A stretch of DNA of 63,973 nucleotides, filler included, from Basidioascus undulatus (Eukaryota): NCBI GenBank assembly GCA_000826855.1. It is 3 parts of 3 records of this genome, joined end to end, with 100 filler letters (N's around TTAATTAATTAA, not from the genome) between each part and the next. Parts side by side here need not be neighbours in the genome. Positions count along the whole stretch, not along the records: positions 1 to 21,939 come from JTLS01000309.1; positions 22,040 to 43,943 come from JTLS01000310.1; positions 44,044 to 63,973 come from JTLS01000386.1. One strand, written 5' to 3'. The position numbers and the translations under genes were made by a program. Below the pieces are notes generated by a model. It was given only the letters and a program-made list of their open reading frames with translations. It ran no database searches and was not told the DNA's origin. Below are positions 720 through 56,135 of this stretch, one piece after another. Within the stretch, counting starts at the first letter, position 1. Each line of letters opens with the position of its first letter.

Positions 720-1650
720 CTTTTCAGGTCTTGGACCTGCCCTCCTTCGGAAAGTACACTCTGCACACCTTACTAAACACACCCCGACTCCCCTCGTACT
801 TCCCCCTTGCTTACCACAGCATCTCCAGCCTCGCTTCTTCTGCCCTCCCCTCCCAGGCTCTGACCCTTCTCCCCCCCCCTCCTTCCCGCTCCCATAGGCA
901 CAAAAATTACTCTCTGGAACTCAGAGCTGCGTCGGGAACGGGTATGGGCTTTTTGGACAGGTTGGGTTGGACGTGGGAAACAAGCTGAGTGCGCATCTCT
1001 TGTTCCTCTTCCTCCTCCCCCTCCTCCATCCCCTTCCCTTGCCCCCAATTCCGCATCCGCCCCATGGATTGCCCCAATTATTTTCCCCTGCACTCCCCTT
1101 GTTCTCCTTTACACTTTCGTCCCCCCCTCGCCTCTACGCTCGTTCACTTTCCCCCGCTTTATCCCAGCCTATCCCTCACCATCTTCCCCCATTTCCTTCC
1201 TCTCCCCGCTCCTTCAGTCTCGAATCGGCCCCACCCTCGCCCGCACACATAGCGCACACCCTCCATAACACCTCCGACACCCACTGACCATCCCCCTCAT
1301 GTGCCACACCCTCCCCTGACCCGCTTCCTCTTCCCTGCGCTCCCCAGCCTCTGACCGCTCTCCCCTCCCCTCCCGCTCTCCCAGACACGTAAGTTGCTCT
1401 CTGTACTCGCAGCGCCGTCTGGGACGGGCATGGGCTATATGGGAGGGTTTGGATGGGCATGGGAGGCAAGGTGAGTCCGATCTTCTGCTCCCCCCCGCTT
1501 CTTCCTCCCCTTCTCCCCTTCCCCACGCGCATTTTCTAACCGCCGCATGAAAGTCACCCATTCTTTTTTTTCTTCTCCCTCACACCCCTTTCCATCCCCA
1601 ACCCCCCTCGCTCCTCCACTCGTTCTCTTTCCGCCACTTCACCTCGTTCT
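720..1650. repeat. Diverged ~486-bp tandem duplication, pyrimidine-rich on +, with a coding-like core
   Basis: Blocks 898-990 and 1385-1476 align. On + they read SGTGMGFLDRLGWTWETS* and SGTGMGYMGGFGWAWEAR*, with TGA at 986-988 and 1472-1474. The flanks also align (PLASTLVHFPPLY vs PLAPPLVLFPPLH). Confidence 0.7.
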
Positions 1651-3063
1651 CGATCTCCAGAACGGCTGCATGGAAATTGGTGATACTTTTTCCCTGACTT
1701 TCGCTATTCCTCTTTTCCCTTCCCATCCTTGCCCGGTCTGTTCACTTGTTCTGGATCCCTTGCTATACCCCGCGTCCTCATCTCCCGGTCTCCCCATCCA
1801 CCTCCTTCACCTTGCGCTTATTCCGATGCCCCACATTTTTCATATCCACCTCCCGTCTATCCCTTCATGTACTCACTTTCCCTTCTGTTTATTGATGTTC
1901 TCTGGCTCTCTGGCTACACCGCGTCGTTCCGGCCACGCTGTTGTGCATGAGCGTGATGTGCTTCAGCGTCAGAGCCGGCATGTAATGTGCATGTATATTT
2001 ATTTATATTCGCATTGTTAATGTATGAGGAGTGCGAACGCAGCGGAAACACGAGCTCAGCGGATAGGAAGGTCGATTTAATGTGGCGATACACAAGCAAG
2101 ATGGTCGACCAAGTCTTAAAAAGATGCGCGCATTGTTTATAACAGGCCCGTGAAGTGACAACCTTGCCGCAAAAAAGCGCGGCGGTTGCGACACAGCGGA
2201 AGGCGGATCGACCGCCGATCGGAAGACCGGCGCTTGCTGCACCGCTAGAATGTGCGCTTAGTCATTCCGCTTTGAGCGTTTTAGATTAGTTTTAGACATT
2301 GCGAAATTATAAGTGTCTGAACGTCAGTTCTTACAAGATGAGCGAGCGGCGCAGGATCAAGCTGGCCCGACGTGCAGGCTGCAAGCAGAACGCGTTCAAT
2401 TTCGACAGTTGCTGCACCCACTCTCGCCGGAAAATCCTCATGATTGACATACAGCGGATCGAATTTGGTAAAAAAAAAAATCTAGTTGCATCAAATATGT
2501 ATGTTGAACAAGAAGCGGGAAAAGTGCTCCGTGAGTGACGCCACAGACACCCTTGGCCAGATCTATTGGGACTGCCAGCACGACCATGTGTGGAACCTAC
2601 CTGCTGAGCTGTAGTGATAGTCATGGCACTTCACTCGGTGATGATGGACGCTGATTCCCAGGCTTGCCATGTTTTCCTCTCCGCCATAAGTACAGAGACG
2701 CTGAACCTAGAACCATCGCGAGTTGGGTGGTGATGAGACTGTGGTCAAAAGTAGCTCTCACACTGCTCAATAAAAATGAGCACCCTTACCTGAATATAAT
2801 TTCAGAAAAAGACCCCATACGCACTTATACAGCAAGTACGGCCACTCCGCCCCAGCTGCGCCCGGCCGTCCACAGCCCACCAAAGCCCGAAGAAAGGACC
2901 GAGGGAGGGAAACGGAGCCAGATGGAATCTTGAGGGTGGCTTACATAGGGGGAATACTCAACTGGGGCAGATAGAGAAGGGGAAGGCTCAACGCGGTGAG
3001 ATTATCAAGCCGGGTGGGCAAAGTCTGACAGCGAGATCGCTTCTGTGTGTCTTCGGGACCGCA

Positions 3064-3727
3064 TCATTCAGCTTTTTACACGAGAGCTGGTATATTTCGC
3101 AGTGCCGATGCGCTTGTAAAAGAGGCCTTCCATCTGGCGGGGGTAGAAGCCCGAGTACTCCAGTCTATAATTGCCCTTATCTTCAGGGTCTCGGGGTCCA
3201 CTATGACATTGTGCTGCGAGAGGTCACCGTGGCAGAAAACGTAGTCCTCACTCTCGCTATCGCGGTACCTGGGGGAAAGGGCGTCGCCAGGGGTCGGGCT
3301 ATTCTATACGGAAAGCAGCAGTCGCCCGCGAGGCCCCGCATCTTGCTGGACTTGAGGCTCCGCAGCGTCTCCAAGTGCCCTTCCACCTCCGCCATGACAG
3401 GAGGCCTCTGTTCCTCCGGTAGACGCGAAAGGGGGACACCCTCTACGAAGTCGGTAATGAGGTAGAAGGCCATGCGTCTTCGAAGGCGCACCTTACCACG
3501 GGCACCGGGATGTCCGTGTTCTCCTTGATGTACTGGATGGCCGCCGCCTCGTTACGCAGGCGCTGGACACAGATGTCAGGAACTATCACCCTCCCGGCTC
3601 GGTTGGAGAGCCATTCCTCTGGCCTTAGGGAGCGCTTGACGAAGGTCTTTACCTCGTAGTACTTTTTCTCGTGCGTGATGCCGATGCATCCCTGCTCGCG
3701 CGGTTGGCGTTCCGTTGGCCCAGACAT
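3064..3727 (-). pseudogene. Aminoglycoside/choline phosphotransferase (APH)-family kinase-like gene, intronless, three frameshifts
   Basis: Motifs spread over different frames: RLRNEAAAIQYIKENTDIPVPVV, YLITDFVEGVPL, YVFCHGDLSQHNVIVD, IIDW/EYSGFYP. Apparent 1-nt deletions near 3475, 3272 and 3160. Confidence 0.8.
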
Positions 3728-4205
3728 GGCGGGTGGTTGGCGTTCCTTCTCTACCGCTGTCTCGGGGCGGGTGCTGGGCGGCGTCTGCGGGTGGGTAACA
3801 GGTAGGGCCGGAGTGTACCTTCAACGCAGTACGCGAGTTTGTGTTCGACTGCAGTTAACTCCTCCTGCACGGGGTAGCAATCGGACATTTGAATCGAGTC
3901 GATGGTACTCCAAATCTGGCAGTGAGGTTCGAGGCTGTGATTTCTGGCTGCATAGCGTCTACAAGCTCTCACCCGGCTTCACACCGATCACAGTTCGGAC
4001 ACCCAGGACTGCAACATGCGAGATTGAGTCGCAAGAGTAGATTGAAGTCTCGGGTGAGTGCACCCCTCCTCGGACTGAAACCTGAAAGGCACATCAAGGT
4101 CTGGTTCCCTGGAACTCACCCTCCTTTCCTCTCCAACTTCATCTTCACCTCACTATTCTACCCATATCCACGCCCACCTGTTCATAAAGGCCGTCTTCGC
4201 TCGCC

Positions 4206-5015: not shown

Positions 5016-5206
5016 GACTGCTAATTATTACCAGAGGAACTCAAATGAAGCAGCCTTGTTCTATGTTGTCCACGTAGGCCGCCGCTCCACGTGACTACCT
5101 CCCTGGCCCGCATCTCCTGCCCATACATCTCCCTCCCCGCCCGCCTCCTCTCCTCTCCTCGACCCCACGCCTCCTCCAACCCCGCGCCACGCCACGCCCG
5201 ACTCAC

Positions 5207-5384
5207 CATGCGTCCCCAGAATGACCACCTTCGCCTCGAGCTGGTCCAGCCCGCCCGGTGCGGCGCTGAGGTGGCTCTGTTGCTCCGACGCGCGGCGGGA
5301 CGCAGCCGCAGACGCGGATGCCGACGTCGACGCGGACGCGTCCCAGTTGTAGCACACGTAGGTGGGCGAGAAGGGGCGCGACAT
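5207..5384 (-). pseudogene. Orphan first exon of a Rab/Ras-family small GTPase
   Basis: MSRPF...DQLEAKVVILGTHG is followed by a GTGAGT donor. This is the beta1/G1 entry motif, but no downstream exon encoding VGK(T/S) was found. Confidence 0.55.
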
Positions 5385-6928
5385 TGGTGCGCGCAGGGTG
5401 GGCTGGAGGATGGAAGTGGGGGTAAGGGAAGGGGAAAGGGGCGAAGGGCGAAGGCGAAGATGAAGTGAAGGGAGGCGAGGTCGTCGTGGACGGTGACACG
5501 AAAGATGACGAGTGCCTTCTGTTGCACCACTAGACGTCCACAAGAGAAAATCAGAGCAGCAAAGTCAGTTCCGTGTAATTGAGCGCGCAGCACATGATTC
5601 TACGGAGCAAACACTATTCCGCAGCGGCGAGCCGTCAGACAAACATAGCTATCTCTACCGGATTTCGCCCGGACGTCCATACGGTATCACAACTCACCTG
5701 CTCAGGAGCTCCCAAGGGCGGGTAAGTCGCCTGAAGCTACAGCATAAACCACGGCATAGCTGAAGCTGAGCAACGCAGTGTCCGTATCGGGACGGCACAA
5801 TGACAATGAAGACACTAGCGGCACTCGGCCAGATCGGTCCGCGAAGAGGCAGTCTGCTTCTCAGGCTGTACACTGTCGCTACGACCCGACAACCCTCCTA
5901 CTTACGACCGTAACTTGGTCGCTCTTTTATCGAACTTGTAACCGGAGAAGACGCCGACAGGCGAGGTAGACCCTCGAAATACCTCTGCCCGCACTCCCAC
6001 ACCCCCCTGCCCCCACACCCCAGCACATATGGGTTGTCAGCCATCTGATCATGATCAATTTACACCAGTGAGTGACACTTGATTCGTCCCACCGATCCCC
6101 TGCCCTGGAGCCGCATGGGTTCGCCAGAGGACGCGGCAGAAGGGCTATTCGAAGGGGGAGGGAGACGAAATCCTGTGTCTTGGTACAACTGTGGTTCCTG
6201 GGGTGATCAGCAGATTGGGCAGGCAGTCTGTTGCAATGACTCGGTCCGTCACGAAAGCCAATGGAAGCGAAGAGACTACTGCTGGTTCCGGTTCAGAGCT
6301 TTTAGACAGACTAGCGATGTCCTCTATTCCACGGCAAGTGAATGTAAACCGAAAAAGCAGCAATACCAGATTATTGAAGGGAGATGAGCACAGGCGTCAC
6401 GTTGACGAAAATCTGAAACGCGACGCGCTCTGTTGCGCCTCCGTGTCGACTGCCTGGCGTTGTCCATACCGTCACGCCTTTGAGCCTCAACTTGAACAAC
6501 CTCATCAAGTCCTCGTCCTCGTCCTCGTCCTCCTCATCGGACCTGCCTTCCTTGTCGTTGTCACCGACGCTCACGCACACAGCAAATATATACGGTCAGA
6601 CGCTCGCGAGAAGATCGACGCTCCGTCGTTGGTCGCGTCCCATACGGTAGTACCGTACGCGCACGCACGCGCTCCCCCTGTTTAGACGCTTCATCAACCA
6701 CCTACCAACCTTTCCAACCGACCCAAACCACCCGCCCTTCCCCTCTCTCCACTCTTCTGTTATACATTCTTTCTGGGGTGGTTGTTGTTGCTGCTTACCT
6801 TCAATTGTCTGCCGCCGGACAGTGGACCTCCCCTACGCCTTCCACACGCTCTCTGCGAACAACCACCAAACCGTCAAAGAAAATGTCAAGTCCCTCAGCC
6901 TCCCAGTACACAAAGTTCCTGACCCTCC

Positions 6929-9900
6929 TCACACAAGCTCAACCAACCCAATCTCGACCAGATCGTCTACTGGAACCCCCCACGTCCTAGCTCGCGAGCC
7001 CGTAGCGTCGCGGACCGCCACAAAGAGCGCGAGCAATGCACGCGCGACGAAACCCGAGCGCGGGTCGGGCTGGAGGTTCTTCTTCCCTACGAGCCAAGTC
7101 GCCGTGCCGTGGTCCAGGGCCGCAACGACAGCGATGTCTGCGGGGACTGGCGGCGAGGGGATGAGCGCCCGCAGCTCGCGCGAGATCTCGGCTTTCGACA
7201 AGATCGCGGACGGCACGTCGTTGTAGCCCAGGTAAATGACGCAGTGGTAGATGTGCGGGCGGGCTCCAGAAGCACAAGAGATGGAGAAGCGCTCGGTTGG
7301 GTCGACCTGTGCTACGAGACTCTGAGCAGGGATAAGAGATTGAAAATGAGTCGGTACCATGTCACGTACGGTTGGACGTAACACCTCCTTGATATGCAGA
7401 AAGACAACGACTTCGTAACGCGCCTGAAAGCGGTGTACGAACTGTACCCAGACCGTCGGCACCCCCGTGCCCGACTCATTCATGAATATACCTAGCCCTG
7501 TGCGAGGTATCCTGTCCATTATGAGCCTCTTGCTCGGTGCGGTGAAGTAATGGAGAGCGCACCCGAAATGTCATTCAGCTGTGCCAAGTCTTCGGCATTG
7601 GGTGACTTTATCTTCCCTTCTGCACGGAGCCTCCCTTCCGCCGACCACTGGCGGACTTTGCCGAAGCGCCAGATGCCATGAGGGAAGCCAAGACAGCTGT
7701 CACGGCAAGGGTAAACCAAGCGCCTTTTGGGACCTAAGGGTGAGGGGGAAAATAGAGTTCCGTTAGCGAATGCTGCATGCAAGATACGTGCAGGTCCACG
7801 GCAGCAACTCTCACCTTCAGAAGAACAGCGGAAACGTAGAGCCCATCGAATGTCGCAAAGAGGAGCCAGATCGGCAGGACGACGAGAGGATGCAACCGCC
7901 AAACGAGCAAGCCGACTAAGGCAAGCAGATTGGTTGTGATGAACGAGACGAGAATGATGCAGAGACCGTAAGCGTTGCCGAGGCGGGTTGTCTTCAGAAC
8001 ATCGAAAGGCAGAAAATAAAGCTTCACTCTCTGAATATGCTATCCAGGGTACGAAGCGACACGTACGTTTGAGTACGCGGCTGTCACTGCAATAGTCATA
8101 ATCATGAGAGTCCAGTTGGCGATCGGCACGTAGAGCTGACCATGGAAGCGTTTTGAGGTATGGCGGATTGTAACGGGTGGGAGATAGTGCCTGCTGGCTA
8201 TGAATCCTACAATATTAGCTCTACCCTGACCCACGCAGGAGCGAAACGCTCACTGGCTTGTTTCTACGAGTGCGTGTGCGGCCTCTGTCAGTCTCGGTAT
8301 GATCGCTCGAGGCTGGAGGTGTAGCTCACGATGATATTGAAACAGCCAGTTATGAGCGCCTGCGATGCTACGATCGTGGCGAGCACGGCGACGATAAGTG
8401 ACGGCCAGAGCATGCCTTTGGGCACTGTGCTGAAGAACGGGCTGGACCACGCCGGGGGATCGACGCTGATCTTCGCGGCCTGGCCAATGTATGCTAAGAG
8501 CAGGCACGGAAGCGCGAAGCAGCACCACGACAGCTGGATAGACCTTGGGGGCACATGCATAGACCGATATTAGCTAGAGATGGGTGGCAGACATGCAGGG
8601 CGGTGAAAATTTGACGCATACCTCCGGTTGAAGGCACCGAGATCGGCGAACAGGGCTTCAACACCTTACAAACATAAGTGGCAGTTAGTCACCCAATAGC
8701 ATGCCCATGAATTTGCTCATTTAGTCCGGAGAACTCACCTGTGAAGCACAGAAGAATACCACCGAGACTGCGCCAGCCGTCGATGCCTTTCAAAGTGAAC
8801 CAGCGTCCGGCGTAGTAAGGCGAGAAAGCTTTGAGAACGGATCTTCTTAAAGCGATGTTCAGACCCATGCTCTTCGGAATGCACTGATACCAGCAATTTG
8901 GAATGCAGCGTACGCATCGTAGAGGATGAGGTTCTGTGGAGCATTACCCGTGAGCATGAGGACGGAAAGTTGCCCTCCGTTAAGGGATGCTCACATATAT
9001 GCCGAAAGCCGCATTGAAAATTAACCATACGATGACGATGGGCGAGAAGGCGAAGGTGAGGCGGGAGATGCCCAATGGCTGCACTGCGAAAAGAAGCGCG
9101 AGAACTGCGCAGCTGATGCCGACGGTCGTCCCGTCTGTCAAGTTGGGATTCACAATGCGACACCCTGGTATGACGGCGGTCAATGCGGAACCCTTGTACG
9201 AGCAGTACGGATAACTTCATAAGCGCTCGCCTTGGATCGACCCGAGCACCGACTGCGCGGGAGTGAGGATTCCATCTAATGAACCATATAGTATCGATGA
9301 AAGTGAAATACTCCAGTCATTCTTCGTGGCATGCGCACCAGAAAGAACTAGGCAGATCCCGATGATGGCGATGCCGCTGAGCAGCTTCTTCGACAGGCGG
9401 CGACGCTCGAGCCACGAGCGGAAGTTGCGGTTAAGCGGGGGAAGGTTGAGGGTTGCGAAGCGGACCAATTTGCGCTCTTCGTCTGGCTGGGTCCTCTCTT
9501 CCTCTGAAAGCTTGGCCTAAGGATCAAGGGATTCAGTAGACATAGAGGAACTTGATCCCCTCGCGGCGCTCTTGACAGTCCAAAGGCGACTTACGAAACG
9601 TGACAGGAGAGAGTACACCGCGAGCGTGCCCCCCTCGCCTTCGTCGTCTGCGAGCAGAACGATACATGCGTACTTGAGGGTGACCATGATGATGAGGGAC
9701 CATATGACCACAGAAAGTGCGCAGATGAGCTGTTCATGCGTCGGGTCGCTCGTAAAGGTCGAAGAGTAGACATCTCCCATGGAAGCGCCATCAGCTTGCT
9801 TCAAAGCGACGAAAGAAGCTTGGCAGGGAGTCCTGCTGACTTACAGAGGGGTGAAGTGCCGATGTCTCCATATATGGTGCCGACCGATTGATATGCAAGA

Positions 9901-10074
9901 ACAAGCAGCGAGCCGTGCTTCGCCTTTTGATGAAGAGTCTGAGTTGGGCTCGACAATCAGCCGCTGTTTGACTCTGGGCAGCAACGGTGGACGTGACTGT
10001 GCCTTATCCTTGGCCTGGAGGGCAAGTGCCTCGACGTCAGGCTCCTTGTTCTCGCTGGTGTTTCCAGTGTCCAT
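6929..10074 (-). CDS. HAK1: KUP/HAK/KT-family potassium transporter, multi-exon, with two apparent frameshifts (probable young pseudogene)
   Basis: Motifs [68 protein letters not shown]. The frame breaks near 7675 (ASLM/IWRFG) and near 7520-7580. Confidence 0.9.
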
Positions 10075-10642
10075 GTCGTGAGTGCGTCAGAGCCGAAGAA
10101 GCAGCAAGGGAGCAGAAGGGCGATCTGAGTGCGGTGCGTGGTAGGGGTACTATATTTTACTTGACTTTCTGCAGAGGCAGTTGTGCCTACGGTGCGCAGT
10201 GAAGTCACCGATAGCGGAAGATGCGCAGCGGGTTATGGCGAAAGGCTCGCTCGCAATGCTCACATCGCATTTTGCCGGACTTCCTGCTGAAGGAAGGCGC
10301 AGACTGGCAATTTCTGGGTCTTCAGAACAAAAACTTTTCAGCTCTTTCAGGAATGTGGAGACCATGGGCGACTCGGTGCTAGAAGACATCGACTTGCAAG
10401 ATGGCGAAGAAAATGAGTGCACTGCGAACTCGCGGACTCAGACCTTACGCTGCCACCCGCAACAGAAGGCTTCAAATATGCGAACATTGTCCAGCAGCCT
10501 TCGCAGAAAGTAGCCCACAGCATTCGGTAGAGACTATTGATGCCAGGTATACGGAAAATCTAGAAACCGTCCCACTTTGGCGAAGCGTCAAAATCAAATA
10601 CGAGAGGGACCGAGGTGTTTTGGAAGCACGTTGAGGCCAAAC

Positions 10643-10990
10643 CTAGCAGAGATGAAGACATTCAACACGTTCCACTTTAGCTTCTACGATGAGGAACACT
10701 AAGACAGGGGGCGTTAATATATTTACGTTGGCCAGACCCTCCCAGACCGTTCTCCTAGCGGCGACCTCCGTCGCGTCTTCAACCCATTGGTAAACCCGGG
10801 TCGCAAGAACCAAAACTTCGTTAGCGTAGACTTCGATAATTGAGTTGTCGACTGGGTGTAAAGAGCAGACAATGGTCAGCCCGCTTGTCAGCGCGGGGAG
10901 CGCCTCCGAGAAGTTTCAGAGTACTGCATGTAAGCGCGCACCATAGATAGTGAGGTTCAAAAGCTGATGCTTGTGCCGGTCGGCGATCGC
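10643..10990 (-). pseudogene. C-terminal fragment of a GH32 beta-fructofuranosidase/invertase
   Basis: Splicing out intron 10852-10941 (GTGCGC...GCTGAC...CAG) gives LLNLTIYVDNSIIEVYANEVLVLATRVYQW, resembling the GH32 beta-sandwich motif. An in-frame TGA lies just upstream and no catalytic domain is present. Confidence 0.65.
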
Positions 10991-11548: not shown

Positions 11549-13276
11549 TCAACCGAACAAGAACCTCGTCGTGCCCTCGTTCGCCTTCGCCGCGTCCAGC
11601 CCGGCCCCAACAACCTTGATGACCTCCTCACGAACCGGCTGTACGCCAGGCACCGCGCCGTCGCTGAGCCGCCGCTTGCGCTTCCCCAGCCCCGCGCCCG
11701 GGTCCGCCTTCCGCCGCCCCTCGGCCTCGCGCAGGCCGATCTTGAGCCGCGTCAGGTCGGCGCCGCCCGGTGGCGGGGAATTGTCCGCGAGGAAGAGGTC
11801 GAGGTACATGTGCACTGCGTCTGCGAGGCGGTCGCGCGGGAGTGAGATGGGGTGTGTTGGTGAGGGATGGATGGGATGGGGGGACGCACCTTCCACATCG
11901 TCAATCTCGGCTAGCCAGCGCTCTTCCCACACCCCACCGCTCTGCAGCATCGCAGCGAGATGGTCGCCCTCGGTTGGAGGCAAGCGCGCGCCGGGAGGGG
12001 AGGAGGAGAGGAGGGCGGCGAGGTACAGCGCCGCGAGGGCGAGGATGTGGGGCGGGTAGATGAGCGGGGCGAGTGTGCGATGGCTGTGCGGAAGGAGCGG
12101 GGTGGTGAATGGCGGCAAGGGGCGGGGCAGGCAGAGTCTCACCTGTCAATGGCGATCTTGAATGCGAGCTTCGAAAGTTGTTGTGAGGCTGTTAGGAGTA
12201 GGAAATGGTGAGACACCAGCGAGCGAAATGCACACGCAGAGTATCTTACCTCCCATTGCTCGCCCGAACTTGATCACCCACGTGAAAGGTTGGCGGACAT
12301 TGAAGCTGAACGATATGGTCTCGAGCACGAGGCGCTCGATCCCCAGCAGCCTTTTCCGCTCGCTCTCGAGCGTCTGTCATACATCCAGCTCCAGCAATTA
12401 GCGTGGATGTTCGCGAGAAGTGCATGGCGACTCGGAGGAGAGATTGGCGCACCGCATCGTCGACCGCAACCTCGCCCTTAGTCGTCTTCCCGACCAGCTC
12501 GGGATGGCGGATGGCGAAGGCGCCGATGAGGATCTCGCGCAGCTTCTTGAGCGTGTCGTGCATCTTGGAGGACACGAATAAGCACGCGGTCGCGACGTCC
12601 TGTACAGTTTGGGTGCTCTCTGTCAGTTCGTTCCTTCCGATGGGGTGCGAATAGGAACGGACGTAGAATGCGAAGTCCTTGAGAGGGTAGAACAGATGGA
12701 ACCGGTGATAGAGAACTTGCGCCGTAGCGATGGTCCTTCTCGGACTGCCCATCCCTCGCCGTCAGCTCCGGTCTCCCTCTGGCAGGAACGAGCGACTCAC
12801 AAGCCCAAGCTCCCGCCCAGCGACTCCAAGAACCCGCACGCCATCTTCCTCACGCCCTCCGCCTTGCGCTCCGCGATCTTCCCCCGCTGTCTCGCGCTCA
12901 GCTCCGCGACCTCCTGCGGCGTGAAGTACGCATGGAACCGCTTGGTCGTGATCGCCTCGTCCTCGGCGGGCGGCGGGAGCTGCTGCTCCTCCGGGACGAG
13001 TGGAGGTGCGGTTCGTTGCTCTGGGGGAGGCGGCGCAGGGACTGGGGTGGGGACGGGTGCTGGCACTGGTGTTGGTGTCGGTGTTGCTCCTGGTACGAAT
13101 ACTGGGGGTTGAGGCGGAGGCCGCGGAGGGAGGGCCGAGGTCGAGGGGGTTGGGCCCGGAGGAGGAGTAGGATAGGGCGGAGGGCGCGGAGGGAGAGGGA
13201 AGCCGGGGATGCCTTGTGGGTGCGGAGGTGTAGGGAAATTAGGCCGCATGGGCAGAAAGGGAGGGCGGGGATGCAT
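11549..13276 (-). CDS. CTK2: Cyclin K/Ctk2-type cyclin (RNA Pol II CTD kinase subunit)
   Basis: Pro-rich N-terminus, then a cyclin box: FPRRTIATAQVLYHRFHLFY, ATACLFVSSKMHDTLKK, ERLVLETISFSF, LIYPPHILALAALYLA. The exons splice in frame. Confidence 0.85.
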
Positions 13277-13701: not shown

Positions 13702-15161
13702 ATGCGTTCCTTTACCGCCTTTCTCATCCTCTCACTGTCCGCTTCAGCAGCGGTGGCATGGCCGGGTTGTTCCACCTCTCAGTTCGCCTGGGTTCGTCAA
13801 GCCCCTCACGCTAAGGCTGGGTACCGCACGCTCGCTCACTATGCACGGGGATCAGTCACTGGTGAACAGCACGGACGTCTGCGATCAGGCTGGGCTGCTG
13901 TTGGAACGCTGCGACTTTAGTGATCGCTCACGGACTTCCTTCACTAGTCTCCATTGCTTCCGCTAATCCGCTGCTCTGCGGGACAGGTGCATCGATCGAT
14001 GCGTACTGGAACGCAAGCGCTGCGTCCTACGCACCTCCCTCGGGCGACGATGCAACGTCTTGTGCTTGCTCGGCCGTCGTTTACAACCTTATCTCAGGTG
14101 CGTTTCTCAAATGGATGGTACGCGCAAGGACGAGGTGACTACATGGGAGAGACTTTTAAACAGCTTGCGCTGCCTGCCAGGACGAGAAGACTTGTGGCGC
14201 TTGGCCAACGTGGTCTAGTACGTCCTCATTGATCCTGCCATGATTGGAAACTGGCTCACTCTCTCTAGAATGGATTGCCGCCTGCTCCACCTCTTCGCTA
14301 TCGTGCGTTTCAACTTCCACTGCCCGTCTACGCCCTCTCACGTCCGCGCCCGCCTTACAGCTTCCCGCACGTATACCCCGAGTCCTACACTCCTCCCGTC
14401 TGGGCATTCGTAAGCCCCAACAGTACCGGCGACGGCGCCTGGTCCTTCGGACTCTCGTACGCGCTCTCCGCGGGCCATCTCGCCCTGGGGTCCGATGGGC
14501 GCGTGAGCGTCATCAGCAAACGCTGTGACGACTGCGAGGGCGGCGCAGGCGGCACGCAGGACGACCTGGACGACTGCGAGCACGATCTTGGGATCTACTT
14601 CCCTTTGGCAATAGCGTTCATCATCCTCGCAGGGTCCGCATAGGCCGTCCATCTTCCTCTAGTCCTGCCCGCTGACGAGCAACTCGTACGACGGACAGCC
14701 TCCTTCTCGCGCTCTTGGCACTCCTCTTCCTCAGGGGAGGAGAACAAATAAACGAGACGTTCGTCTGGCCACCGGCGTTCGTCTCCTACCCACCAACGGC
14801 CGAAGCGTCCCGCTCGCCAACTCCGCCTCCGCCTCCGCCTCCTTGTCCCGCGCCTGCACCCGCACCTCCGTCTATTTGCCCCAGGCCTGCACCAGCGCCC
14901 GCACCTCCTCCTAAACCCACTCCGCCCCGTCCTCAACCCTCGCCCCCAGCATGCTACTCGTACTGCGCCCCTCTCCAGCCGCCCCGACCTCCCGTGTTCA
15001 AGCAACTCCCCACATACTTCCCGCCGCCGCAGGGCGCGGATAGATACCCGACATGCGATCCTCGGGGCTCGGTGGCGTGGCCGAAGTGGTGCGTTCGTTT
15101 TGAAGATTTTGTGCTCGAGCGGAGAAGCACATGGATGCTGATCTGGTGGGACTCTAGGTGA
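13702..15161 (+). CDS. Signal peptide + Cys-rich ectodomain + single TM helix + Pro-rich tail (basidiomycete type I membrane protein)
   Basis: Signal MRSFTAFLILSLSASAAVAW, Cys motif CACSAVVYNLISACAACQ, TM LGIYFPLAIAFIILAGLLLALLALLFL. The exons splice in frame. Confidence 0.7.
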
Positions 15162-36850: not shown

Positions 36851-37432
36851 TTAAAGATTCGCCTGCACCGGCGCAGCCTTTCCCGCATCCTTCCCCACCC
36901 TGCTCTTCGCCTCCTCAACTGCCTTGACGTCGTGCTCGTGGATCCACACCGGGTCCTCCCTCGTCCTCGAGCTCCCGAATGCGCTCGTCGCTCAGCACCT
37001 TCGCGCCGCCCCCGCGGGCCTTGGACGCCTCCGTCGCGCGGATGACACGTGTAACGTGCGCGAGGCGGGTCGCGTTGTAAAGCTCGAGCGCGAGCGCGGA
37101 GAAGAGGAGAACCCGTCGGGGCTAGGACGGGATAGGCGTGCTTGAGCGAGAGCGCGAAGGCGTAGACGTCGTCGATTGCAAGAGAACTGGGAAATGTAGT
37201 TTTAGGTCAGTAAGCTGAAAACTCAAGCGGTCTGAAGGAGTTGGAAGTGTTAGTAAACAGACGACGACATTCCCTCCAGCGGCGAAAGCTCCGCCGTGCG
37301 CGTGCGCAGCGTCGCCGATCAGCGCGACGCGGCGTTGAACACGATTCTGGACAGCGCAGCTCCGGACCGGTTCAGAAAGATGCGAATGGACGGCGTCGCG
37401 TCCACGACGGCTTTCAAAGTCGGGTGCCAGTC
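36851..37432 (-). pseudogene. 3' remnant of an FAD-dependent monooxygenase (salicylate hydroxylase-like)
   Basis: Motifs DWHPTLKAVVDATP, VALIGDAAHAHGGAFAAG, SLAIDDVYAFAL, PVWIHEHDV. Frameshifts are present and no N-terminal GxGxxG was found. Confidence 0.8.
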
Positions 37433-42432: not shown

Positions 42433-42935
42433 ATAGCATCGGGTAGCTCATCTTCTTTGCGCACAAGGTATTAATAAAGCCTTTGAAACAACTTCCGCCA
42501 CCGTGTGATCGCCTGCCGGCTGCTTTCGACAGTGCCGCTCGGCCTTTCCTAGGCCACGCGTTTCCCTGTCCACCTGCGGTTGCCCAGCGTTACGGTACTT
42601 GGCCACCCGCCGCGCGTACACAGACCTGCTTTCCCAACTGCCTTACCAAGCCGCATTCTGCTCGTCCATCACGCGCCCACCCTTACGACTAGTATTCTGT
42701 TGATGCGGACAACTGAGCGTCACTTGAGCTACCGCAAAGCAAGCTGCATATGACCTGATCTGGGCTGCGTCCGAAGCCGATTCAATAGTCACACCAAGTT
42801 GTCGGGGAACCAGAAAATATGGAGTTGCAGTGCAAGCTGTTGAAGTGCTAGCCCAGTCGCAAAGCTTTCATTGGCGCATGCACGCATCTGCTCGACCCAG
42901 TCCCAACACGTTACAGCTCCCTTATCCTGCTCGGC

Positions 42936-43910
42936 TCAAACGCGATGCGCCTTGCACCACTGGAAGCGCGGAGGAGTAAAGTCAGCTGAAGTGAAGAAGA
43001 CTCGGCTTATTACCGAACAGGAAATGTACCTCCTTGTGTTTCGGCCAGTCCTTCCGGTGTTCTGGCCCACAGTACGCCGCACCCGCGCACGACTTGCACA
43101 TTGATCGAGCCAGCGTTCCGCAGACTTCGCACCGGTCTCCAACCTTGTCCAAAAATGTAGTCTGCTTAACTTTCGATTTGCGCTGGAGTTACGAGGAAGC
43201 CCGTGGGCTGCGGGCGCGGATCTCGTCGAGAAGTTTCATGCGTGCGCCCAGGGGCTCGCGGCGCCTCCATGAAGCGAACAGAAGGCGAGAAGTGTCATCA
43301 ATGGGGGGGACAGAAGTATAATGATCAATGTTGTATAGTAGCCAGCCGCTGAAGTGTCCTGTGCGCAGCATGGACACCGTGTGCAGCAGATGGTTCACAT
43401 CTCTTCCCTACGCGCAGCGCTCATCTGGGCGTCCTCGGAAGCATGGAAAGGCTGGAGCAGAGTCGGAATATCCATCAAAGTGATGAGACCCGCCGCGGAC
43501 ACGCTCAGCACGGTGCCCGGGTTGATCAGATAGAGCGAGTCACGAAAGGTAAAACGTGGTTTGCCGGGCAGCAACAATTCCCGTGAGCAAAGCCTGCGTA
43601 TCCAGCATGGTCAATAAGGTCTCGAGGCTGTGAAGGAACGAAAGAGAGGGCATCGATCCTGGTATCGATAGACGAGCCTCTCAAGGGAGCCTCTCAAGAG
43701 CGATTCCAGCGCCGCGACGATGTCAGGTCCAGCGATCGTACTCTCACCAGAGACAAGCACTGACAATCCGCACTGCACGATGGCAGCAGATACTCCAGCC
43801 TTGGCACACAGAGCGAGACCAGCCCCTGGAGTCGTCTGATCGATCGCGCCAAGCGAGATGTTAAGATGGTGCGATAAAGCGGACTTCACGCCTCGTCTGC
43901 AATGCGCCAT
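42936..43910 (-). pseudogene. MYND zinc-finger protein pseudogene, copy B (inverted relative to A)
   Basis: IDDTSRLLFASWRRREPL, an in-frame stop at 43189, then CEVCGTLARSMCKSCAGAAYCGPEHRKDWPKHKE, an intron, and WCKAHRV*. Confidence 0.78.
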
Positions 43911-45896: not shown

Positions 45897-46433
45897 TGAG
45901 CGGGATCAGCAACTTGATAACTTGAAATTTTGAGGATGCGTTAGGTGAAAGCAGATGGGAGCGGGAGGACAGTCGTTTGTAGTATGTGCGGCGCTGGGGT
46001 CTTTCTGAGATTCGTCACGTTTTAGTCGGCTGTAACTCGTTGTACCACTGCTATTCCGCTGCTTTGTGCACAATTTTATGAAAGTTGAAGACATGCAATG
46101 AGTCTGAGTTCCGGTTCATCAGCGTGCAGACTGTGAGTATTGTTTGCGATTGTTTGCAGCTCTAGTCGGCAGCCGCAGTGCCCCCGCGCTGGGCGTGCCG
46201 TCGCGTCGGCATCGCCAGCTCGAGGTTGGCTTCCCACTTTCCCATTACTTTGATCTTTGGACGCCCATACGCGTCGGGTGTGCATTTAAGGCGTGAAGTA
46301 CATTCACCTGGTAAGCTAAAGCGTACGGAATCCCTCAGCTCCAACATCCTCGAGAGTTACGGCTGAGCCTCCATGGCCCCAGCACTGACGCTTGCACCGC
46401 CGTCTTCCCCCTTGCCATCGCCAGACTTCCACG

Positions 46434-49400
46434 ATGAGCGCGCCTTCCTCCCCACGCACATCCACGACTCTCCCTCCCCCCTCCTCGGACCTCCCGACGC
46501 TCCTCCCGCTTTCGCACGCCCACCCGCTCCTCTCGCCCGCGCTCAACCCGTCCTTCGACCCCTCGGAGTTCCTCCTCTCCCGCCCGCACGTCGGTTTGCA
46601 GGACCTCGAAGACGAGCTCGCGGGGTATGCAAAGACGCTCAAGGACGAGCTTGTGGGGGTGGTAGATGAGGACTACCAGGTGCGTGCGGGGGAGGTGTGG
46701 GAGGTGTGGCCAGGGAAGGAGCGCAGGTGCTGAAGAGATGGGAGATGGTGGACGACAGGACTTTATCAGCTTGAGCTTGAGCTTGAGGGATGAGGGGCCA
46801 AGGTTGGAGAGGATTGAGGAGCCTTTGGGAGGGATGCGGGATACGGTCGAGGTGCGTCGTGTGGCTCATTGGCCCCTGCTTCCCCACCGGGCAGCTCAAC
46901 CTTTCCTCCACACAGACCGCCCGATCCTCACTCGCGGATATCAGACGAGCAGTCCAGGAAAAGCTCGATGAGCGATCGAAGCTGAGAGAAGAGAAGGTGC
47001 CTTGGTCGCATCGCTCGCAGTCCTGAGCCTCGCGTTGATGCACACATCGCACCCTCAGGCCCTCCTCCGACTCCTAATGCAGATCTCCGACTCGCTCACG
47101 CGCCTCGAAGGGCTGCTGCATATCGGGCCATCACCCGCAGAGCCGAGCACGGCATCGTGAGTGCTTCAAGTCTATCTTAGCTTCACGAGGCAGCAGCTGA
47201 TCTGGTAAATCCTGTGCAGGACAAACACCCCCAAGCGCGTCGAGCGCATCGCTGCAGAGTACACGCACCTCCTCTACCTCATTTCCAAGGCGTCCGCTGC
47301 GGAGCTTCCATTTGTTTCCTCTGTCCAATGGGTCCGTCTATTACTCTCCATACTCTGCGTTTCTCCCTGGTATGCTTACGAGCCTTTCTCTCAGCGCATC
47401 GACCGCCTCACCAGCACCCTCCTCTCGACGCTCTCCACACTCCTCACATCCACCCTCCAGACTCTCATTCCTACACCCTCCTCATTCACCACCGCCCCTG
47501 CCTCCCTGCGCTCCGCCGCACTGCGCGACCTCTCCGATCTCCTGCGGACGTACGACTCGCTCTCGCGGCACAGCGAGGCAGCGTCCGTCCTGCGGTCCTC
47601 GACCATCGCGCCCTTCCTCTCCACCGTTATCCACTCCACCGCGCTCCAGCCGCTTCCGCCGCAGCCCGACTCCCTCCTCAGCCCCACGACGCCCAAGACG
47701 CCCTTCCTGCGCACCAGCGGCGACGAGCCGCCGAGCTACTTCGGGGCTGCGGCGACGGCGGCGGCGCTGGACGCGGACGTCCCCCAGCTCAACGAGGAGG
47801 ACGGCGAGAACCTCCTCGCGGCGCTGTACAACAAGATTCTCTCCTTCGTCGCGCACGATCTGCGGCCCATCCTCCAAGCCGCAGAGAAGGACGACTCGTC
47901 GTTCGACTTTTTCGCAGGCGTCCTCTGGGACGAGACCGCGCGGCGGCTGTCCGACACTTTGGGGGGCACGATCTTTGCCGTGGGGCGGACGACCGAGTTC
48001 CACGCGCGGTACACGACGACGCAAGCCTTCCTCTCGCACCTCGAGTCACTCGCGCCGACGCTGCCCACGCTGCACCGCCTCCGCGCGCACCCCCCGCTCG
48101 AGAGCTTCCTCAGGCGCTTCCAGCTCCCAGTGTACTTCCAGCTCCGCCTCAAGGAGGCCCTCGCCGTCGTCGAGGGTGCCCTCGCCGCGAAGCCGCAGGT
48201 CATTCCTGCTGGAGGAAAGAACGGTCAGTGGGGGATCAGGCAGAGCGAGAGGGTCAGCTGGGCCGTGGGCAGGAGCTGGAGCGACGAGGTCTGGGTGGAC
48301 GAGTTAGGGGGCAGATTCTGGAGGTTGACGCTGCAGGTGCGCTGAGAGTGAGATCAACGGCAACGGAGGGGAACACGGCGCTAATGGGGGTGTGGCTGTA
48401 GCTGTTGTCCAGGTACAAAGGGTGGCTGGAGAAGGCGCTTCCTGAGGCTCCTGCATCCGCATCAACCGACCGAGTGCGTGTGCCCCTTCTACCGATCCAT
48501 CCCTTCGTCCCCCTAACTGACCCCCTGCCCAGCTCAATCCCTCCTCCGCCGCATCCACCCGCGCCCCCTCCCCCAACCCCCTTTCAACCACCCAACCCGC
48601 CGGCGACGAGAGGGCGCTCGAAGATGCGTCGCTCAAGCTCCTTTCCCTCTTCCACTACGACCTCGACCTCTTCATCTCCACGACGCGCACGCTCTGGTCG
48701 ACCTCCATCTCCACGCGCATGCCCTCCGACCCAGCGCCGGCAGATGACATCCCCAGCCCACACGACGTCCTGATCGAGTCGCTCGACGCGCTCGCGGCGC
48801 TCAAGCCTCGCATCGAGGAGCGCGTGCTCGCCATCCTCTTTCGGCGGGCGGCCGAGCCGCTGCGGCTTCTCAAGTCGTCGCTGTACAGGACGCCGTCCGC
48901 CGCGGCGACGGGCGCGGCGGAGCCGAGTTACTTTATCGAGAACGTCATGCGGCCTGTGAAGGTGTTCTTTGGCGAGGGCGGGGCGGGTGAGGGCCTCAAG
49001 GAGAGCGTGCGGAGCGAGTGGAGCGCGAAGGTGTTTGAGGAGATCTGCGTCCGGTGCGTTCGGCTTTCCTGTTTTACGAGGCAGTGGCAAGGAATGGACG
49101 GGCGCTCATGTCAGCTGGGATGGGACAGATACGCCACCCAGCTGACAGCGATGAAGAAGACCGAGGAGTCTCTCCGACGCTACAAGATGGGCACGAAAGG
49201 CGCCGGCGGCGGCCTCTCATCGCTCTTCTCGCGCGGGAAGCAGGCGCAGGCGACGGCGCAGCCGGACGCGGGCGCGGGCGCGGGTGAGGAGGACAAGGTC
49301 GCGGAGCAGATGCAGGTAGATGTGCGTGCGCTCGGGGAGGACGCGCGCGCGCTGGGCGTCGATCTGGATGGCGTGGGCGAGCGGGAGGGGCTGAAGGGGT

Positions 49401-49471
49401 GGAAGGAGCTGAGGGAGGTTGTGGGTATGGGCCCGAAGAAGGAGGGCGAGGGGGGAGGGGAGAAGAGGTAG
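46434..49471 (+). CDS. COG2: Conserved oligomeric Golgi complex subunit 2
   Basis: Motifs FDPSEFLLSR..LQDLEDEL..LKDELVGVVDEDYQDFISLSLSL, IFAVGRTTEFHARY, RRFQLPVYFQLR, RFWRLTLQ, PSYFIENVMRP, KKTEESLRR. Confidence 0.88.
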
Positions 49472-49785: not shown

Positions 49786-49814
49786 AGGCCATCCCAGTGT
49801 AAGATGCCAGAACC

Positions 49815-51386: not shown

Positions 51387-52721
51387 CTAGGAACTCAGCA
51401 AAACAGCTCCCAATTTTTTCAGCTCCTTCTGTTCTCGTCGGACTGAAATAATCCCTCTGGTGAGTGGGTAAAGACGTATTCCGTCGGGCGGATTGCGCAG
51501 ATTGCGAAGTACTCGTCTATCCTTCAACGCGCCCAAAGAGCTTGCAAATGACCGCCTTTCCCTTTGAATGCTTCCCCCTGACGACATGCCACCCTATCGA
51601 ACAAAGTAGGTGACAGGCACAAACAGGGAATAAGATGCTCGGGGGCAACAAACAACAAACGTACAAGGGGATTCGGGTAAAATGAGAACTTGGACAATGA
51701 GAGCGGCGCCGATGAAAGCAAATTGCGTGTACATCGCAGGAAGATATTCCTTGGGTCGGCTAGAGTCGAGGACTTTGAGGACGATGGCGCCGAGGCGCTG
51801 ACCGACGCAGACCTATTTCAAGTGTTGTTGAAAGTGCCGCAGGTCAGACTTCTCGCGGCTCGCCCGGGGACAAACGGGATGAAAAAAGCACCAGAGAGAA
51901 TAGAACGACAACAACCCACCTCTGATGCTGACTGCGCTGGCCTGTATGAGAACTGTGAGGTTGCTGATCTCGGTCTCCAAGTGAAAGCCTGCAATGACGG
52001 GCCTGCATGATGCCAGTTCCCCACCCGCAAAAGAGCTTTCCTACAAGCCACGTCTGTCAAGATTTGGCTGTAGCCTCGCATACAACTCCCTGGAAATGGT
52101 CTTCAACAAGGTACGAACGTTTAACACACGACCGCAATAGGACTTACGACGGCCAGCATCAGCGTCATGAGCACCATGGAGGCTCTGCGCCCGAAACAAT
52201 CGGACAGGCTTCAATACGCTATAAGTTTAGAGTGTGGGTGCGGTACTCGTAAATGCAGTCGATGGAACGTACAAACCGCTAGAAGTCATGCCCACGATCT
52301 GGCCGGCACTCTGCACGCCACCCCATGCCGAAACGACAGTCGCTGCGAGACTCGTGTTGCCGCTGCTGTCCGTCTGAGTTGCGAAATTCTGGACGAAGCT
52401 GGAGTTGGCAATAACGGAGCTGTTAAGAGAGATTTGCTATCCGTCCGAACCGCGAGAAGCCCGCAGGCAGAGATGATAAGTGTCGCTTTCCAGAATACTT
52501 GTGGGTGAGGTCGGCGAAGGGCGAGCGAGAGGGGGCAGGATCGGTTGGGGCAGGGCAAGTTTGCAGCCCGAGGTGCTCGACAGAAGGCTTTTGAGTGGCT
52601 TCGGGCTGCGGAGCCATGTTGACCGCTGTGCGAGAAGCAGAGAGCAGCTCACTCCAGGGCTTCGAGAATGAGCTCCTTCCTTTATACTTCGATGCTCGCT
52701 AGGGAGCAAGGCTTGGGCCAT
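51387..52721 (-). pseudogene. MFS sugar porter (maltose/alpha-glucoside permease-like), N-terminal half only
   Basis: Motifs LSDCFGRRASM, AKS*QTWLVGKLFCGWGTGIMQ (TGA at 52057-52059), IRGGLLSFYSLW, VLILPESPWW. A frameshift follows PESP and the C-terminal half is absent. Confidence 0.8.
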
Positions 52722-53363
52722 GTGAGCACACTTGTCCTGGGCTGTTAGCCACCGCCCACAACAGAGTACTGGACTCCGGGGCTTGTAGTTGCGGGTTGCC
52801 GGTGTAAGATTGCACCGAACACCCAACCCAGTGTCGGGCCCTGTACGGAACCTGGCCCGCAGTTCCGATGAGGGTTATTGAATGTTGTCCAGAGAGTCTG
52901 CAGTGGTTTCCTTTGTGAGCGAGTAGATACGTTTATTGGATATGCCAAGGCTTTGAGAAGAGCCGACTCCACGGCGGGATCCTAAAGCAGTCAAGCAGTC
53001 CATGCGGTCACATCCGCGAGTCCATGCATGTAGATCCTGGAGTTGCCTGGAGCCGCGGATGCCGCGCCTCCGCTTGCTTGGTGTTCCCGAATATCCGCAT
53101 ACCGCCGCCGTCAGAGCCAGGCCCCAGCATTCATCGTCGGCGAAACTTCCCAACGGCGTTTGCCTTCGCTGTAGGACTGCGGGTCTTTCACCCGTCCCAA
53201 TTGCCATGTGGCTGGTTTGGGCTGATCTCCCGGCACAACTCTGCATTGAGATAGCACTTCTTCCGACGCGACATAGCCAACCCTGCAACATCTCAGGACG
53301 CTTGTTTGTTCAGAAGATCGGATTCCCCTGCATCCTCGTCTCTTCGCCCTTTGGCTTCTCTTC

Positions 53364-56135
53364 ATGTCTCTCGGACAACGCTCCGACATTCATCCCATTC
53401 GTGTTCATCAGCCCTTCGGACTCACTCGAAAGCTCGATGCTCTTGTGACTGGGCTCACCTTTGGACGCCCTCCCGCCGTTCTGGAGGGAGATGGAGCTGG
53501 GGTTCTTTGTGAGCAGGAGTTTCACTACGCGTGTCTGACGACCACTCTGCTGATTACTGGCTCGAAGACTACGGCGTGAACGTCGCCGGCATTCCTGTCT
53601 TCGAAATGGCTGCTGTTTCGGGAGAGGCGGTTACGTTCGAGGTTACGTGCTCCGAAGGATACGCCGCGCTGTGGCGGGACGGACTTGGGAGACGGGCCCA
53701 TGCCCTTCGCGAACACGATGGACGTAAGCAGCTGGTTGCCTCTCGTGGTACCCTCCGTCTCATGCTGAAATGATTTTTCCAGTTCTACCGCGTCAATCGC
53801 TATACGGTCTTGGCTCCGCAGACGGTCGTCTATCCTGCGATCACGGCGCGCAACGCTAGCAAAAAATCAAGCTCGTTACCCCGGGCGCTGTCGAGGTCCG
53901 CCGCATAGGCTTTCGAGCCACGGCGCCCAACGACAAGCTTGCCGGAGACTTCGAGTGCAGCAATCCCCACTGGAATCGTTTGTAGGAGAACGGCGCCAGG
54001 ACGGTTCAGGTGTGCGACATAGTTCACCTGTGCATCGCGATTTGCACGTCTGGCTGACCAAGACAGCCTGCTAGCTGTGCTGCCTGCCCGCCCGGTCAGT
54101 CCCACCCGCTTGGGATGTAACACCGCAATGCACTCGCGTTCGAGGCCGGCATGGCGGCCACGCTCTGGACGAGCGTTCGATTCACCAACTACAAGCTCGA
54201 ATTCGACGTCGCGATCGAGGAGGGCGGTGCCGGCTGGCTTGTTCTTGCAGACAGCCTCGGCGGAGGTCTCTTTGTTCATGTTCGAGTTTTTTACATGCGC
54301 TGTTGAATGAAGCTGAACTTAGCTCGATTCAAACAGTTGGATCTTGCTCGCATAGTAGCTCGGCCGGAGCATCTTCCCCTTCCCGACCTTTCTGATACGC
54401 TTATAGGCCTTTTCAGTGCTAAATTCCTGTCGGTTGGTGTGCAGGTGTGGGGCCGCGATGCTGCCGTGAGCCTTTCGGAGCTTTGCGGTATCATCGCCTT
54501 CTCTTATGCGCCGCACATCTGATATAGGCTCGACGGGGTAAACAGATTATGGGTCCGATCGTATTCTATATGGGTCCATGGAAGAGTACATAACAGGCAC
54601 GCTCGAGCCCCTCGCTTCCTGGCAGAGGCAAGAGGGCGCATTCGCGAGCATGGTTCCGCCGACGATGCACAAGGGCAACGGCTGTGCAGTCGATCCTCCT
54701 CCCAGTTTCTGTGAGTTTCGGTGCTCTCTCGTGAACTTATCTGGGATACACAAATTGGTGCTGAATATCTCACTTCATTTCCTCAGACAGCCTCGCGTAC
54801 GAGCTGTACGCTGTTAAGAGCTTCTACGACGCACATCTCTACGGTGCGCTATCGGACTCTGCGCTCGAGTCGTACTATCCGCAAATCCGGCGACAAGTCG
54901 AGCGTGGTCTGTCGTTCCTCGACGGAGAGGGCATCGCGCGCATCGACCCGAGTGACGCAGTCCTCGCCATGGACTTCAACTATTACGACGGCCCTCGCCT
55001 CGGGGCGAACACGAAGCTCATGGCGCAGCTTGTCGACGTCCTCTGCCTCGCTGCGGAGTTGGCATAGGCGGTAGGCGCGTCCGATGACCCGGCGCGCTAT
55101 CGCGAGCAGGCTCGGGCGTCGACGGACGCGATCAACAGCGTGTTGTGGAACGAACGGCTCGGCACGTACAAGATTACGGGCGACCTCGCCGACTGCGTTG
55201 CGCCGGACGTCGCGGCGTGGGCAGTGATTTCCGGAGTTGCACAGAACGCTGAACGGGCTGAGGTATGTGCTGATCTTTTCCTGAGGATTTGACTGTTGCA
55301 GGTTAGCCCATACAATTCTCGCCGCTGACTTGTTCAACTCCCGCTCCCTCAGGCTGTGTTGGAGAGCGCACGCTCCGACCTATCCGTCCCGGCCGGCCAG
55401 CTCGCTTTTAGTGCCAACACGGTTTCCCGCAAGAGCATCTGCCCTTTTATCTCAGGGTGGCACCTCGAATTCTTGCACAAGGAGCGCCCAGACGACGCAA
55501 AGTACATCTTGGACAGCGTCTTTGGGCGTATGGTGGATCCTCGGGACCCAAAACTACACGGCTGTGTTATCTTTCTGATTTCTGAGCTTTCTCTGATTGC
55601 AGGAACGATGTGGGCGCTCATGCTCGAGGATGGTTTTCTGGGCAAAGGAATACACCTTCCTCGGTCAGTCAGCTTGTTCTTAGTCCTGCTCTCCTCTCCT
55701 TTAGTTACTAATGACAGGAACCCCTCTTTACATGTCAAACAGCGCATGGCTGGTCCGCCTACCCCACTGCCGCGCTCAGCAAGTACGTTTTGGGCGGGTG
55801 TCCGACCTCTCCGGCCTTCCGCACCTGGCTTGTCGCGCCGCACACTCGGGCTGTCCTACGTGCGCGGGCGCGTACCCACGCCGCACGGTCCGCTCCGCCT
55901 CGCCTGGGAACGTCCCACGGACGGCACGGCATTCAAGATGGAGGTCAGCGTGCCGGCTGCTACGAGCGGAGTTGTCGTCCTGCCTAACGAGGTTAGCCCG
56001 GCCGATGAGGTGCGGATCGATGGAATCGCGCTTGGGCTGGAGAGGGAAATCGTCCAAGGACGGAGGATCCGGGTTGAGGTGAAGAGCGGGACGGAGACGG
56101 TGGTTATCGAAGCCAAGTTGTCTAAGGGAACTTGA
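53364..56135 (+). pseudogene. GH78 alpha-L-rhamnosidase-like gene, disrupted
   Basis: Motifs DYGVNVAGIPVF, GDFECSNPHWNRL*ENGARTV, AINSVLWNERLGTY, ICPFISGWHLE, AHGWSAYPT, RGRVPTPHG. Stops at 53983 and 55065 plus frameshifts. Confidence 0.82.

Follow-up and report, generated by a model that had tools for sequence, protein, structure and literature searches.

The stretch of DNA analysed here, called the window below, comprises 63,973 nucleotides (nt) of the Basidioascus undulatus assembly GCA_000826855.1, in which damaged remains of genes lie between conserved genes. The original prediction had described this arrangement as a gene graveyard. When every relic was set against a homolog with a purpose-built, spliced and frameshift-aware aligner, 10 of the 13 named relics were found to be broken or fragmentary: APH, Rab, GH32, CalB-2, GATase, FAD monooxygenase, MYND-1, MYND-2, a sugar porter and GH78. 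The graveyard is therefore real, with pseudogenes at high density amid intact housekeeping genes; the ten relics occupy 16% of the window (10,064 nt), alongside about 15 genes modelled as intact. In addition, a Pfam run on 600 stop-free segments of at least 50 amino acids (aa) from the non-core regions of the window recovered APH, K_trans, GH32C, zf-MYND and Bac_rhamnosid_C.

The range of decay that had been predicted, from frameshifts to lone exons, was observed, except that the KUP gene, placed at its mildest end, does not belong to it (see below). Six nonsense codons lie within exons. Among the ten frameshifts to which a direction could be given, eight are of the -1 class and two of the +1 class, which agrees with the proposal that single-base deletions dominate; however, only the three frameshifts of APH were sized at the DNA level and shown to be single-base, -1 being elsewhere indistinguishable from +2. 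GT-AG introns are kept in CalB-2, GATase and the porter, and a donor site in the Rab copy, indicating that these are not retrocopies. No CpG depletion of the relics was seen (observed/expected 0.94-1.19 versus 0.92-1.36).

Two relics are reduced to single or last exons, as had been proposed. Exon 1 of a Rab GTPase stands alone on the minus strand (5197..5384), and no later Rab exon was found within the window; a full gene is present on contig C2577, to which the orphan exon is 86% identical in DNA and on which Ras-family matches follow. The nonsynonymous (dN) and synonymous (dS) divergences of this exon are 0.085 and 0.45, respectively (dN/dS 0.19). The C-terminal remnant of GH32 (10578..10852, minus strand; PF08244, E 3.7e-4) holds last exons only; a 31-aa stretch is 65% identical to the end of a GH32 gene on C2481 that looks full-length. 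This gene rules out a unitary loss of GH32, which an empty search with PF00251 had suggested.

Two CalB-like lipase genes adjoin each other on the plus strand; the name is one that we presume from the GWSQG motif, and no Pfam match was obtained. CalB-1 (26218..27621; 322 aa, 7 introns) is intact. CalB-2 (27862..29222), aligned to CalB-1 with 110 of 201 positions identical, carries a -1 frameshift near 28376, a TGA at 28450 that falls within the catalytic GWSQG motif, and a +1 frameshift near 28680. The glutamine-amidotransferase-like (GATase) pseudogene (31886..33320, plus strand), whose family we likewise take from a motif in the absence of a Pfam match, was aligned to an intact paralog on C2242 (103/236 identical). 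It shows frameshifts near 32150 and 33114 and a TGA at 32475, its nucleophile motif is lost, and its 3' end contains a 92-bp tandem duplication. MYND-finger pseudogene 1 (38400..39330, plus strand) has two -1 frameshifts, near 39118 and 39210, relative to an open exon of C2708, and MYND-finger pseudogene 2 (42920..43900, minus strand; PF01753, E 1e-6) is interrupted by a TAA at 43191. The weakest of the ten confirmed relics is the C-terminal remnant of the FAD monooxygenase (36880..37470, minus strand; PF01494, E 0.006), in which three frame changes were recognized by eye. The FAD_binding_3 family has 18 matches elsewhere in the genome, and no close paralog was detected by tblastx among 12 loci.

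The sugar-porter (MFS) pseudogene (51520..52500, minus strand) consists of an N-terminal half, the C-terminal half not being found. It is identical to P0241 (PF00083) at 94 of 217 positions and contains a TAG at 52439 and a TGA at 52059 relative to all three references. This relic is the best match to P0241 in the genome, and no closer intact copy exists there. Twelve other sugar-porter loci were compared: eight are without lesion, two have a lesion, one is doubtful and one uninformative, in a count that uses top-scoring loci and thereby favours intact genes. The GH78 alpha-L-rhamnosidase pseudogene (53490..56135, plus strand; PF17389, PF17390) has a TAG at 55065 within the Pfam-aligned stretch and a further frameshift near 55841; it is the only PF17389 match of the genome.

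The original prediction had called for a search for surviving copies, and a family copy was found elsewhere in the genome for eight of the ten relics. This copy is close or adjacent for Rab, CalB-2, GH32, GATase, both MYND relics and APH, and for the monooxygenase it is at family level only. For the other two relics, GH78 and the porter subfamily, the functional copy is gone from the assembly, which may be incomplete, and these two look like true losses.

Three sequencing runs, all in the form of assembled contigs, were compared with positions 1940-21939 of the window. X1 (2014) and X2 (2025, from another study) are DNA, and each may be a source of this assembly. X3 was recognized as RNA by its spliced joints; stretches that it does not cover were not read as silent. 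Outside a two-copy segment described below, 0 differences separate the assembly from the long contigs listed for X1 and X2.

The APH/choline-kinase-like relic (3104..3742, minus strand) is an intronless fragment, related to one of the genes on the virus-like contig C2820. It is 81% identical in DNA to C2820:9184-9840, relative to which it has three single-base deletions (dN 0.11, dS 0.82, dN/dS 0.14). A paralog on C155 contains 3 stops and 5 frameshifts. Directly upstream of the relic, at 3754-3830, lies a dispersed repeat of about 80 nt that also occurs on C2890 and C1901 (88-89%).

Contig C2820 (1-13076; 13,076 nt) is made of long, intronless open frames with a GC content of 0.59. Its genes encode a kinase, a P-loop ATPase, an Rpb1-like RNA polymerase, a family-B DNA polymerase (PF00136) and two APH proteins. 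The best solved relatives of the DNA polymerase were found at E 5.8e-24, and an IMG/VR scan with this polymerase found no relative; the nearest Atlas clusters of the RNA polymerase are viral (0.89), which is a lead only. In X1, an 854-nt piece of C2820 reached a depth of 505 versus about 18 (about 28-fold); it is transcribed in X3 and is not listed for X2. Furthermore, the first 10 kb of C2820 have at least 44 matches on other contigs (58-868 nt, 67-100% identity), many of them at contig ends, and four of the six fragments inspected contain stops or frameshifts. Judged by its sequence, the APH relic is thus a putative insertion similar to the plasmid- or virus-like pieces of nuclear DNA called NUPAVs, one of many dispersed pieces of the C2820 element. 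The scattered fragments may reflect repeated capture over time. C2820 itself is a putative high-copy virus- or plasmid-like element, and may be the more novel lead.

The KUP/HAK potassium transporter gene (6932..10074, minus strand), the sole PF02705 locus of the genome, had been regarded as a relic with two frameshifts. Its alignment, with 14 canonical introns, no stop and 353 of 653 positions identical to P0109, contains one frameshift only, near 7677, relative to two fungal homologs. At this place, X2 and X3 carry one extra base that opens the frame, and X1 is without it. The frameshift lies in a segment (6015..7795) in which two near-identical copies are collapsed in the assembly: the depth is 36 versus 17-20 in X1 and 95 versus 47-51 in X2, and the listed differences between runs and assembly, at 6058, 6182, 6945 and 7675, all fall within it. 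The end of contig C414 (8484-8572) is an exact 89-nt copy of 7707-7795. No credible alignment was obtained for older KUP remains upstream on C414, and a first homolog search with the C-terminal segment of KUP gave no match. In X3, a spliced joint of KUP (8197-8330) is located upstream of the two-copy segment, and the spliced contigs give the gene an open frame. The simplest reading is that of an intact, expressed KUP gene accompanied by a 5'-truncated duplicate, which would carry the short allele. The apparent KUP pseudogene is thus probably an assembly product. The original prediction had stated that it would fall if reads exposed the indels as assembly errors; this is most likely the case for KUP, and it is not so for APH. 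The duplication of the 3' part looks recent and starts within an intron. A 10-nt micro-exon of KUP (8253-8263) is spliced in X3, and CalB-2 (near 28530) and GATase (near 32035) have similar exons of three codons.

The conserved genes between the relics were predicted to be intact, and this was confirmed to different degrees. MCM7 (33726..36652, plus strand) was aligned to a homolog over 784 aa, with 8 introns, 0 stops and 0 frameshifts. Spliced joints in X3 support three further genes: an intact cyclin (11549..13271, minus strand; five joints, Cyclin_N weak), an intact CFD1/NBP35-type P-loop NTPase (16581..17700, minus strand; PF10609), and a transcribed gene of no Pfam family (approximately 13758..15161, plus strand) with seven GT..AG joints, which is cysteine-rich and among the deeper X3 contigs (depth 62). 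Lesion-free parses were obtained for CalB-1 and for seven apparently intact genes, although such a parse is weak alone, since the ab initio parser masked the known lesions of GATase and CalB-2 as false introns. These are, on the minus strand, ATG12 (18143..18885; PF04110), MAK10/NAA35 (approximately 22500..25379; PF04112, PF25789), a beta carbonic anhydrase (29737..30957; PF00484) and a RAD9/Crb2-like gene (56535..60174; 1072-aa open frame with Tudor and BRCT domains), and, on the plus strand, ALG2 (40619..42432; GT4 and GT1 domains, 503 aa), COG2 (46370..49471; COG2_N, COG2_C) and ALG9 (61684..63900; PF03901).

Several other features of the window were recorded. Two small genes that look spliced and belong to no Pfam family are located at 4206-5015 and 45135-45925, and an A-rich 14-nt tandem array of about nine copies at 49659-49782. 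The two coiled-coil relics of the original prediction had no Pfam match among the 600 segments. An X3 contig (depth 27) at 15793-16155, in which no long frame is evident, perhaps represents a coiled-coil relic or a non-coding transcript.

The host assembly measures 32.1 Mb over 2,992 contigs, of which C2226, C2228 and C2310 form the window, joined over two N gaps. Each gap contains a 12-nt spacer with stops in all frames (21984-21995; 43988-43999), which is an assembly linker, and the adjacency of the three contigs is therefore unverified. At least 21 RVT_1 matches are present in the genome. Locus L025 (5413-8223) and C2381:6451-9397 share a paralogous alcohol-dehydrogenase (ADH) region of about 3 kb at 73-76% identity. 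In a quick tree of 43 MCM7 proteins, the host groups with Wallemia with an SH-aLRT (approximate likelihood ratio test) support of 100, the best fungal matches having 75-78% identity; by this tree, the host is a basidiomycete sister to Wallemia. The Geminibasidiales are presumably the other described branch beside Wallemia. For Wallemia ichthyophaga, a mean of 9.55 Mb and 4,188 genes is reported (PMC6738226). At 32.1 Mb beside a sister of about 9.6 Mb, the host is therefore not the compact yeast-like genome that had been assumed.

In our judgement, the relics are rather probably genuine pseudogenes of mixed origin, produced by birth-and-death turnover together with captured element DNA and cleared slowly. 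Duplicates would remain under purifying selection for a long time before one copy dies, as may have happened to Rab, GH32, CalB-2, GATase, both MYND genes and probably the monooxygenase. APH would stem from a virus-like DNA element resident in this fungus, a piece of which was captured in the chromosome, possibly during break repair, and then left to decay. A minority, GH78 and one sugar-porter subfamily, would be true losses of dispensable functions. Once selection is gone, nonsense substitutions, deletion-leaning small indels and larger truncations would accumulate, while single-copy housekeeping genes would stay intact. Slow clearance may be the last step in this presumed order of events and may add to a genome three times that of Wallemia. 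The dN/dS values of the Rab exon and of APH are below 0.2, and the divergence therefore took place under purifying selection before breakage. The whole looks like unusually heavy gene turnover, and not like a loss of the ability to self-feed.

Dead copies are also found outside the window. Four further MYND copies were aligned to the C2708 exon, and each of them is broken (two on C2843, one each on C2215 and C2822). Among the 97 zf-MYND matches of the genome, many of them partial, 10 have a stop inside this short domain, and 11 of the 30 best MYND loci have a flagged lesion, about six of which are convincing. As the host contigs lack chromosome order, the linkage of broken copies was read by contig only.

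Several points weigh against turnover as the explanation. The paralogs are often old (43-55% identity) and therefore perhaps not redundant, so that the loss of one could still be a loss of function. A strict count was possible for only 1 of the 30 best MYND loci, the alignment of the others being too poor. When 450 segments, drawn from 100 kb of four other contigs, were screened against Pfam, no clear relic appeared, with a filter that would pass only 2 of the 10 window relics; five genes of this control sample looked intact by eye. The window may thus be richer in relics than average. The comparison with the sequencing runs stops at 21,939, which places the lesions of 27-56 kb outside its scope. 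Finally, none of 80 metagenome MCM7 loci shares a neighbouring gene with the window; there is no close relative among them, and the losses are therefore undated.

According to the original prediction, the relics result from ongoing reductive evolution of nutrient-scavenging functions. In the form weighed here, carbohydrate and scavenging functions would be shed after a niche shift, as in a slower version of the gene loss of Wallemia with the corpses left undeleted. As the main process, we consider this unlikely. GH78, broken at its only PF17389 locus, and the porter relic, devoid of a closer intact copy, fit it, as do the lean of the relic families to accessory metabolism and the deletion class of eight of the ten directed lesions; the sister lineage, moreover, is reported to combine a genome of 9.55 Mb with about 4,200 genes (PMC6738226). 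However, eight of the ten relics have family copies, among them GH32, which survives on C2481, and the Rab, MYND and APH genes do not serve nutrition. Eight of the 12 other porter loci are without lesion, a GH3 and two ADH genes of the control sample appear intact, the frame of the spliced KUP gene is open, and the genome is large. Reductive loss accounts well for two relics but poorly for the others. The idea stands in a mild form, for GH78 and one porter subfamily, and falls for the other relics; a shift to host dependence as its cause is unsupported.

It is improbable that the window simply samples a genome-wide state of weak selection, through small population size, selfing or clonality, or a mutator state. 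Dead copies do occur in several unrelated families on many contigs, and in two of the three pairs compared, the GC content at third codon positions (GC3) is lower in the relic exons than in the paralogs (CalB, 0.59 versus 0.75; GATase, 0.75 versus 0.82; APH, 0.74 versus 0.71). On the other hand, core genes keep a strong codon bias (GC3 of 0.90 for MCM7). Six MutS loci, MLH1 and two MutL_C loci are present (family matches only), which speaks against a mutator and against a loss of mismatch repair. Over the listed contigs of unique sequence, X1 does not differ from X2, and therefore no polymorphism could be measured. Weak selection is compatible with the turnover of genes proposed above and does not exclude it; it may underlie either turnover or reductive loss.

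That the frameshifts are sequencing or assembly errors, such as homopolymer slips or collapsed repeats, is very improbable as a general explanation. This is most likely true for KUP, several indels lie in runs of 2-4 nt, and X1 and X2 are each a possible source of this DNA. Nevertheless, the contigs of both DNA runs, from two studies, contain the three APH deletions and do not differ from the assembly over the APH region, and these deletions are therefore in the DNA and not assembly errors. The six nonsense codons and the absence of whole exons are not homopolymer errors, and the neighbouring GC-rich core genes are free of lesions. Nonsense codons, lost exons and the 0 differences in long unique contigs together make error unlikely at 27-56 kb as well.

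Two further ideas of the original prediction can practically be set aside, namely fractionation that followed hybridisation or doubling, and degeneration of a local block without recombination, akin to a mating-type region: the Rab exon and the KUP 3' segment are indeed duplicates, but an MCM7 query found six loci, one per MCM2-7 gene, depth is flat and single over unique sequence, the paralogs are of varied age (43% protein to 86% DNA identity), relics and paralog contigs have no neighbouring gene in common, the low-GC share of the window, at 0.34, does not exceed the value for most of 25 other contigs, and broken copies are dispersed over many other contigs.

With dead genes between most live ones, neutral coding DNA would be available for measuring the spectra of mutations and indels, and ancestral gene content would become readable in a subphylum of basidiomycetes that has been little sampled and whose other branch ranks among the most compact known. 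The KUP case is a warning, as an apparent pseudogene was there probably an assembly product. A more tentative possibility, which we hold to be less than even, is that the whole 32-Mb genome has this structure, and owes its threefold size relative to Wallemia to thousands of retained dead genes and to interspersed fragments of an undescribed resident DNA element that has its own family-B DNA polymerase and RNA polymerase, and not to transposons. If so, it would preserve, in fossil form, the gene set that was trimmed down to the minimal genome of Wallemia, and would offer a fungal system of host and element in which the donor is still alive and successive insertions can be dated.

Birth-and-death evolution is a known mode of change in multigene families. 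The large MYND family with its many dead members and the tandem lipase pair with one dead copy conform to it, whereas many unrelated small families affected side by side depart from the usual case. Non-recombining mating-type regions of the Microbotryum type are said to degenerate, with pseudogenes amid retained essential genes. The window resembles them in this respect; in contrast, its Pfam screens found no transposon domain or mating gene, and dead copies are dispersed. No published description of such a pseudogene pattern in Geminibasidiales or this clade was found in a search that did not extend to subscription papers and most clade genome papers.

NUPAVs and NUMTs are described, in a paper that reports them at second hand, as short, random plasmid- or virus-like pieces in nuclear DNA, many of them decayed (Frank and Wolfe 2009, via PMC5499181). 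The pieces of C2820 agree with this description, being short, random, located in nuclear contigs and in many cases decayed; they differ in that one run still contains the donor at high depth and that at least 44 pieces exist. Yeast virus-like elements are reported to be AT-rich (PMC4431711), whereas C2820, with a PF00136 polymerase and an RNA-polymerase-like gene, is GC-rich (0.59).

In eight hemiascomycete yeasts, pseudogenes make up 0.7-3.6% of coding sequences, derive mostly from duplicates, are biased to adaptive functions and cluster in subtelomeres (Lafontaine and Dujon 2010; PMC2876123). Like those yeast relics, the ones in the window are mostly duplicate-derived, range from full-size to heavily truncated, and lean to functions that are environment-related or not known. 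Unlike them, they reach a local density more than ten times higher, and lie amid housekeeping genes in an intron-rich basidiomycete. The dense cluster is thus real, and consists of ordinary kinds of pseudogenes in an unusual lineage.

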